Below are positions 2,070 to 2,262 of a DNA stretch of 15,126 nucleotides, one piece after another. A program made the translations under genes and the position numbers. Origin of the DNA: a virus (lineage: Duplodnaviria > Heunggongvirae > Uroviricota > Caudoviricetes); IMG/VR virus record IMGVR_UViG_2737471857_000007, positions 1 to 15,126 of that record, one strand, 5' to 3'. Under the pieces are notes generated by a model. The model worked only from the letters and a program-made list of their open reading frames with translations. It was not told the origin of the DNA and did not search any database. The stretch's first letter is position 1. Each line of letters starts with the position of its first letter.

Positions 2070-2260
2070 ACCGGGGGACGGCAGACGCGCAAAAACGCGC
2101 TATTTATGAAAATTTTCAGGGAAAAAGCAGATCCGTTCTTCTTCTGGATAACCTGTTGTTTAATAGGGCTTTATTAAAAAAAAGAAAGGATCTGGCAGCG
2201 GTGATTTTTCGCTGAAAAAAGCGTTTTGAGATCCTTTCTTCTTTTTGTGAGGAATATGTG
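2070..2260 (+). other. cos: cos region (cosN/cosB-like cohesive-end and terminase-binding site)
   Basis: Colinear with the lambda left-end sequence as recalled: CGCTATTTATGAAAATTTTC (2098-2117) and CCGTTCTTCTTC (2133-2144) match lambda almost exactly. An inverted repeat AAAGAAAGGATC (2181-2192) / GATCCTTTCTTC (2230-2241) parallels the lambda cosB inverted repeat, and the region sits immediately upstream of Nu1. The cosN core (about 2072-2097, GGGGGACGGCAGACGCGC) differs from lambda GGGCGGCGACCT, so exact nick positions cannot be assigned. Confidence 0.6.
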
Positions 2261-2262
2261 CC

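Follow-up and report, generated by a model that had tools for sequence, protein, structure and literature searches.

The stretch of DNA analysed here (the window, 15,126 nt, positions 1 to 15,126 of the caudoviricete record IMGVR_UViG_2737471857_000007) carries a sequence upstream of a Nu1-family small terminase gene that resembles the left end of phage lambda and diverges in the core of cosN, which raises the question whether this is a working packaging site and, if so, why its cohesive end differs. Overall, the locus is in our view probably the functional cos of a lambda-like E. coli prophage that combines a 21-type terminase with a Gifsy-1-type cosB, and whose cohesive-end core is apparently not read by the terminase. 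A preliminary description, made from the letters of the window, had already proposed a lambda-type packaging and termination site at 2070-2262 with segments matching the lambda left end. Indeed, every string quoted there was found in its place (GGGGGACGGCAGAC at 2073; ACGCGC at 2085 and 2095; CGCTATTTATGAAAATTTTC at 2098, lambda 23; CCGTTCTTCTTC at 2133, lambda 58; AAAGAAAGGA at 2181, lambda 107; TCCTTTCT at 2232, lambda 159), and cosQ, cosN, three R boxes and terS/terL are all present. The site does occupy this interval, but its start has to be moved from 2070 to cosQ at 2047. The lambdoid match also holds in a global alignment of 2047-2262 with the lambda cos junction (59% identity, z = 10 against shuffles), and the same segment aligns with the sites of phage 21 (58%, z = 9.6) and Gifsy-1 (68%, z = 14.7).

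The cosQ heptamer GGGTCCT, the packaging-termination signal, is located at 2047-2053 on the plus strand and equals both lambda 48473-48479 and the annotated cosQ of phage 21. It is followed on the same strand by the cosQ-cosN spacer (2054-2073; 22 nt if counted up to the nick, 2054-2075), which is 1 nt shorter than in lambda and phage 21. According to offset and subsite register, cosN in the lambda definition, i.e. 12 cohesive-end base pairs with 2 bp on each side, occupies 2074-2089 and reads GG^GGACGGCAGACG^CG (carets mark predicted nicks), so that the sequence across the nick region is GGG^GGACGGCAGACG^CGC with CGCTATTTATGAAAATTTTC further downstream. The latter (2098-2117) is identical to lambda 23-42 at 20 of 20 positions and is part of a conserved plus-strand segment between cosN and R3 (2088-2124); the counterpart of the phage 21 site annotated as I2 (IHF; annotation from M81255) lies at 2105-2118. 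The preliminary description had also recorded ACGCGC-AAAA-ACGCGC. This direct repeat is real but limited to one sub-lineage, sister lineages carrying CGCAATTCTTAA or CGCAGATTTTCA in its place, and we ascribe no separate role to it.

R-box and repeat searches identified the three elements of cosB, namely R3 (AAGCAGATCCGTTCTT, 2125-2140 with the core at 2129-2140, plus strand, approximately lambda bp 50-65 and the same as R3 of Gifsy-1), the inverted R2 (2182-2193, minus strand) and R1 (2229-2240, plus strand). Exactly three copies of the motif AGATCCKTTCTT are present in the 15-kb window, and three or more matches were obtained in 0 of 200 shuffles; the consensus of the boxes is AGATCC(G/T)TTCTT. 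Between R3 and R2 there is an IHF-like sequence on the minus strand, AAACAACAGGTTA (2149-2161), with one mismatch to WATCAANNNNTTR. Since matches to the IHF motif are not above chance in the window (10 found, 11 expected), its assignment as I1 is positional. If position 1 is set to 2076, R3 lies at 54-65, the I1 candidate at 74-86, which is identical to the annotated position of I1 in phage 21, R2 at 107-118 (phage 21, 107-122), R1 at 154-165 (phage 21, 150-166) and the terS start at 188 (phage 21, 189), and all of these positions agree with phage 21 to a base or two. In addition, an inverted repeat of 17 nt with 88% complementarity pairs 2113-2129, just before R3, with 2202-2218, between R2 and R1.

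The register of the cohesive end was anchored from the right side, via the distance to R3; in lambda, the spacing between cosN and R3 is critical (PMC9026076). The offset between window and lambda coordinates is 2075 through R3, 2074 at R2 and 2073 at R1, and because it is constant through R3, lambda base 1 corresponds to window position 2076. By homology, the 12-nt 5' cohesive end would thus be GGACGGCAGACG at 2076-2087 on the plus strand, with predicted nicks 5' of 2076 on the top strand, 29 nt downstream of cosQ, and between 2087 and 2088 on the bottom strand; the distance from the right nick to R3 is the same as in lambda. A divergent cohesive end had been noted before, and the sequence does differ from that of lambda, yet its register is this 12-mer and not the 14-mer originally quoted. 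An altered overhang length had been considered as well, but we find no evidence for it. The distance from GGGTCCTTTCC to CTATTTATG is 42 nt in the window and 43 nt in lambda and phage 21, and relatives of this 42-nt class with a canonical left nick context, CACG^GGGCGGCAGACG and CGCG^GGGCGGTAGACG, keep CG^GGGCGG. The missing base is therefore placed in the cosQ-cosN spacer rather than in the overhang, which argues that the stagger of 12 nt is unchanged. The right flank keeps its CG, whereas the left flank has GG in place of CG, and the symmetric pairs 2/11, 4/9, 6/7 and -1/+13 are retained, centred between positions 6 and 7 as in lambda. The pair 3/10 is A/A in the window and breaks the symmetry kept by most relatives. 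Moreover, this is the sole allele with A at position 3 that we observed, and position -2 is G instead of the 'highly conserved' C, so an allele with these two features could be nicked less well. Covariation of T3 with A10 (16 of 16) and of A4 with T9 (10 of 10) is consistent with the 12-nt register, but we rejected it as proof, because A10 is fixed throughout the class and the alleles with A4/T9 may all belong to a single clade; since the symmetry covariation may reflect very few evolutionary events, it is suggestive only.

The packaging genes follow immediately. The cos site is located directly upstream of terS (2263-2811, plus strand, GTG start; Nu1/gp1 family, Pfam Phage_Nu1, E = 8e-85) and of terL (2783-4699, plus strand; gpA family with ATPase and endonuclease, Pfam GpA_ATPase and GpA_nuclease). 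TerS is 87% identical to gp1 of phage 21, 78% to TerS of Gifsy-1 and about 52% to lambda-type Nu1, and TerL is 66% identical to lambda gpA and, as judged from 21-type loci in IMG/VR, shares a backbone of about 85% identity with phage 21. Strong purifying selection acts on the terminase genes (pN/pS of terL 0.04-0.13 against close relatives). Across the loci, residues 13-21 of the TerS recognition helix track the type of R box: ECDVRTITG or GVDVRTITA occurs with AGATCCKTTCTT (Gifsy-1 class), NVDPRTIER with CATGTCGGTACTT (phage 21 class) and GASIRTIQN with CGTTTCCKTTCTT (lambda class). The window, with ECDVRTITG, AGATCC(G/T)TTCTT boxes and the helix type D-V-R-T-(I/V)-T, falls into the Gifsy-1 cosB class, and this co-occurrence of boxes and helix points to a Gifsy-1-type cosB specificity; it fits neither lambda (CGTTTCC(G/T)TTCT, SIRTIQN) nor phage 21 (CATGTCGG, DPRTIER). 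Two sister loci (L246 and L255) have a window-like TerS/TerL backbone, yet carry a 21-type helix together with 21-type boxes. From the TerS identities, the boxes and helix and these sister loci we conclude that the packaging module appears to be a 21-type terminase with Gifsy-1-type DNA recognition, which is a mosaic of a known kind.

Compared with the well-studied systems, the window site itself is an ordinary and recognisable member of the lambda-type cos family. With lambda (J02459) it shares cosQ, the bp 23-42 segment, the right part of the R boxes (TCCKTTCTT), the order R3-I1-R2(inverted)-R1 and the location upstream of Nu1 and gpA homologues, but it differs in five of the 12 cohesive-end positions (3, 8, 9, 10 and 12; seven are identical), in G instead of C at -2, in the shorter spacer, in the left part of the R boxes (AGA versus GTT) and in the recognition helix of a TerS that is only about 52% identical. 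Phage 21 (OL657228, M81255) shares the TerS and TerL backbones and the positions of I1, the R2 start and terS, but has the canonical cohesive end GGGCGGCGACCT and its own boxes and helix. Gifsy-1 (NC_010392, a Salmonella prophage) shares the DVRT(I/V)T type of helix and the type of R boxes (CAGATCCGTTCTTCTT; AAGAAAGGATCTG; CAGATCCTTTC), but has the core GGGCGGCAGCGT, in which the left half is canonical, together with CG at -2/-1 and the 43-nt spacing. Judged by these sequences, terminase and cosB are closer to the phage 21 and Gifsy-1 kind than to lambda proper.

The preliminary description had argued that an internal cos implies an integrated prophage or a circular assembly, and integration is borne out by the matches of the window to E. 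coli chromosomes. At least 80% of the window is present in 69 of 5426 complete genomes (E. coli), and 8415 of the 8462 matching places are chromosomal; the best matches are RM9088 (97.8% over 1-14705) and 08-00022 (99.4% over 520-15126). In the plasmid collection, there were weak partial matches at most, and two scans of species-representative genomes for the 42-nt class gave no match, so that the known host range of this class comprises E. coli, plus IMG/VR and metagenome contigs. Upstream of cos lie the genes for Rz/Rz1-type spanins (18-543) as well as two ORFs without a known function (631-978, PHROG 1935; 1075-1608, PHROG 5091). Homology among related prophages ends just left of cosQ, at about 2034-2040, and the stretch between the spanins and cos (544-2040) is a variable cargo region, in which the SerU-LTIIb prophage carries LT-IIb enterotoxin genes. 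Downstream, the order is terS, terL, gpW, a lambda-family portal, an S49 protease, a decoration protein, the major capsid protein and FI- and FII-like genes. At 10357-14111, the head and neck genes, which are of the lambda/21 type, give way directly to P2-like genes for tail completion and the baseplate (V/W/J/I-like PHROGs) instead of a lambda-type tail, a gene content that implies a mosaic of a lambda-like head and a predicted contractile tail. The head, neck and baseplate gene set is uninterrupted in the window, and we infer that the prophage is inducible.

A 78-aa ORF on the plus strand (1979-2215) spans cosQ, cosN, R3, I1 and R2; RefSeq E. coli genomes list it as a 'hypothetical protein' and KU052038 as an 'NU1-like protein'. 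Its overlap with the non-coding cos and the absence of any Pfam or PHROG hit make it a probable annotation artefact.

In order to place the window core among its relatives, we compared 248 lambda-type cos sites, which came from IMG/VR and metagenome pattern scans together with E. coli genomes. The cohesive end of the window is not the canonical GGGCGGCGACCT, which is common to lambda, phage 21 and most surveyed sites (143 of 248) and which dominates the 43-nt class even where TerL is only 63-85% identical to that of the window. The 42-nt class, by contrast, comprises 18 alleles in 60 copies, which form a network of single-base steps. One allele, GGTCTGGGGACG, accounts for 19 of the 60 copies, and the window allele, one step (G3A) from GGGCGGCAGACG, accounts for four, found in the window, E. 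coli RM9088, an IMG/VR locus (L132) and a metagenome locus (L259); elsewhere, these four independent sequences differ by 1.3-1.9%. G/T changes make up five of the 11 single-step links, and positions 3 and 7 toggle most, in a sample that is too small for a mutational signature.

The variation is sharply confined. Among 15 relatives with at least 95% identity over 2.7 kb, nucleotide diversity is 0.44 at cohesive-end positions 3-9 and 0.029 overall, with all seven core columns variable, and 2078-2084, which we refer to as the hypervariable core, is the most variable 7-nt stretch in the whole 2.7 kb. In the same 15 relatives, there is no variable column in cosQ, positions 1-2, positions 10-12 and R1; R3 and R2 have one each, as do the 37 nt after cosN (1/37), with a diversity of at most 0.011 in R3, R2 and these 37 nt, and the spacer is moderately variable (0.117 over 2054-2075). 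This footprint, i.e. fixed subsites and nick-flanking bases around a free overhang interior, is the one that would be expected of a working cos.

The core also changes independently of its surroundings. The window and one close relative (L257) differ at four of 2700 nt, all of them within 2058-2082. An identical right flank of 63 nt is shared by six different cores, and so is an identical left flank of 31 nt; the window and four other sequences have the same 31-nt left and 63-nt right flanks, but differ at four of the seven core bases. Seven different cores are found among loci with a TerL 98.6-100% identical to that of the window. Pairs of the 42-nt class with at least 99% identical TerL show on average 2.1 core differences and identical cores in 7% of the cases, compared with 0.28 differences and 88% identical cores for such pairs in the canonical 43-nt class. 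The core divergence is several-fold above the synonymous divergence of the terminase genes in the same pairs (0.04-0.18); where four of the seven core bases differ, pS is 0.04-0.11 for the pairs concerned. We regard it as well supported by these comparisons that the window core is one allele of a hypervariable series that appears to run through the whole lineage, which is a modestly novel comparative finding.

Natural variation in cosN as such is not new. Terminase tolerates natural changes of the cohesive end, which commonly affect its right half (PMC4669245, PMC12315714), and variants have been described for N15 and phiD326 (positions 9 and 12), Gifsy-1 (positions 8, 9 and 11) and mEp213/LLS (GGGCGGCGCGCT) (PMC4669245, PMC12315714). 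Gifsy-1 had thus already been cited as a natural variant (PMC4669245), but its allele GGGCGGCAGCGT is uniform in the 39 copies that we observed and shows no hypervariability. Published summaries treat the CG dinucleotides on either side, as well as the left half (or first 4 bp), as conserved. The window lineage departs from this rule. It retains cosQ and the CG on the right, but it differs from the published variants in that it varies at -2 and 3-6 even where the terminases are near-identical. Within the searchable literature, none of the allele strings turned up, although a survey of natural cosN variants that Vahanian et al. are said to have presented in 2017 (Virology 509:140) might already describe them.

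Two readings would dispense with a freely varying 12-nt overhang in a working site. In one of them, the cos is real but the overhang is not 12 nt, being either 14 nt, with a nick after the CG ending at 2073, or about 7 nt, corresponding to the heptamer 2078-2084. Cohesive ends down to 7 nt in length have been noted (PMC9303873), and the variable block, edged by invariant bases, measures precisely 7 nt. The spacing from cosQ to cosN is 1 nt shorter, and the left flank lacks CG at -2/-1 but has CG two bases further left throughout the subfamily (CGGG or CGAG). However, within the 42-nt class there are sequences that retain CACG^GGGCGG or CGCG^GGGCGG at the 12-nt register, and the centre of symmetry, the unchanged distance from the right nick to R3 and a TerL homologous to gpA all speak for lambda-like cutting, so that we consider a different overhang length unlikely. 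In the other reading, cosN has decayed in a defective prophage that no longer packages DNA, and the differences from lambda are mutational erosion. The window allele is indeed rare, with its unique A3 and the non-CG context at -2. At least one relative, SerU-LTIIb, is a clear remnant with a truncated terS, and in the phage collection no induced phage with a window-type cos is on record: no cultured phage has genome ends placed at such a site and no record starts there, the closest matches being the SerU-LTIIb remnant, Gifsy-1, PhiR5_1 (with the canonical core) and vB_EcoM-705R4 (with cos internal to the record). Erosion should, however, leave its mark on cosQ, the R boxes and the bases flanking the nicks as well, whereas the variation is confined to positions 3-9; the terminase genes are under purifying selection, the structural genes are uninterrupted and the same allele is kept in four sequences that have diverged elsewhere. 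Decay is therefore very unlikely in our view.

The preferred reading of a functional cos with an unread core leaves the question of what drives the core so fast. Since the core evolves faster than synonymous sites and independently of both flanks, relaxed constraint alone is insufficient, and either the mutation rate in the core is raised or very short patches are exchanged or selected. That the overhang interior is a true mutational hot spot, in which the seven central bases change several-fold faster than synonymous sites in front of identical terminases, is a serious possibility that we put forward tentatively. Alternatively, core diversity could be selected as a 'barcode' that makes ends incompatible among phages and satellites with one terminase specificity. 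This would fit the excess over synonymous changes in the same pairs, the restriction of the effect to the 42-nt lineage, the reported roughly fourfold loss of viable lambda yield with mismatched ends (PMC4669245) and the fact that contigs with two head-to-head cos sites always carry two different cores. On the other hand, the single allele GGTCTGGGGACG makes up 19 of 60 copies, and the prediction that co-resident prophages differ in allele failed in both double-prophage genomes that were checked, TUM9812 and E423, each of which carries one allele twice. Such a selected barcode is thus rather improbable, and less likely than raised mutation. The two E. coli genomes just mentioned each contain two prophages of the family at distant chromosomal sites (L267/L278 in TUM9812, L277/L279 in E423), with identical cores (GGTCTGGGGACG) and near-identical cos flanks, which could be due to recent duplication, double lysogeny or homogenisation.

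By analogy to lambda and phage 21, dimers of TerS would bind R3, R2 and R1 while IHF bends the DNA at I1, and the bound TerS/IHF would anchor a symmetric pair of TerL endonucleases, whose nicks 12 nt apart would produce the 5' ends GGACGGCAGACG; cosQ would serve termination at the next cos. The lambda mechanism and the tolerance of lambda TerL to changes in part of cosN are documented (PMC4669245, PMC9026076). The core of the window may differ from that of lambda because the terminase of the 42-nt lineage appears not to read cohesive-end positions 3-9. As the cause we favour relaxed constraint together with extra damage or mutation of ends that would be single-stranded in the virion, where mismatches would become fixed at replication, possibly with short-patch resolution of mismatched ends. 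Mismatches in the cohesive ends are known to persist through replication in lambda and N15 (PMC4669245).

Related cos sequences were also observed outside of the standard arrangement. In Escherichia phage vB_EcoM-705R4 (ON470624; L274, 1500-1560), a cosQ-cosN of the 42-nt class, whose core GGTCGGTAGACG recurs in L257 and in E. coli 08-00022, lies upstream of an unrelated small terminase gene and a gpA-type terL that is only 38% identical, from which it follows that the cosQ-cosN cassette travels between different packaging modules. Furthermore, we found small integrative elements with two head-to-head cos sites 0.5-1 kb apart, which have 21-type and Gifsy-type R boxes and different cores (L127 1-11560, with the cos pair at about 8554-9600; L017 2427-2950; L072, L128, L131, L133, L147, L150, L171 and L222). 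One of them (L127) encodes an integrase, an AAA_25 replicase-like protein, SSB and ProQ/FinO, with a Nu1-family ORF between its two cos sites, whereas L017 has no terS there. Such a double-cos element resembles a PICI-type satellite that helpers with two different specificities could package.

For this prophage, the cos site confirms the packaging module and predicts the virion ends. For annotation in general, it is relevant that genome annotators place a spurious ORF across cos, and that a prediction of ends by searching for GGGCGGCGACCT would miss the whole family. In effect, nature has carried out a saturation mutagenesis of cosN in this lineage while the terminases stayed nearly identical; by this comparison, positions 3-9 would be dispensable, and -1, 1, 2 and 10-15 are fixed. 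If the hot spot is real, this would be the first natural readout both of the cosN bases that a lambda-type TerL needs and of the extra mutability of DNA that is single-stranded in the extracellular phase; in a stronger version, the diversity would be under selection, with the ends acting as a compatibility barcode between phages and cos-bearing satellites that share one terminase. The family also raises the testable question why single-stranded phage ends evolve so fast.
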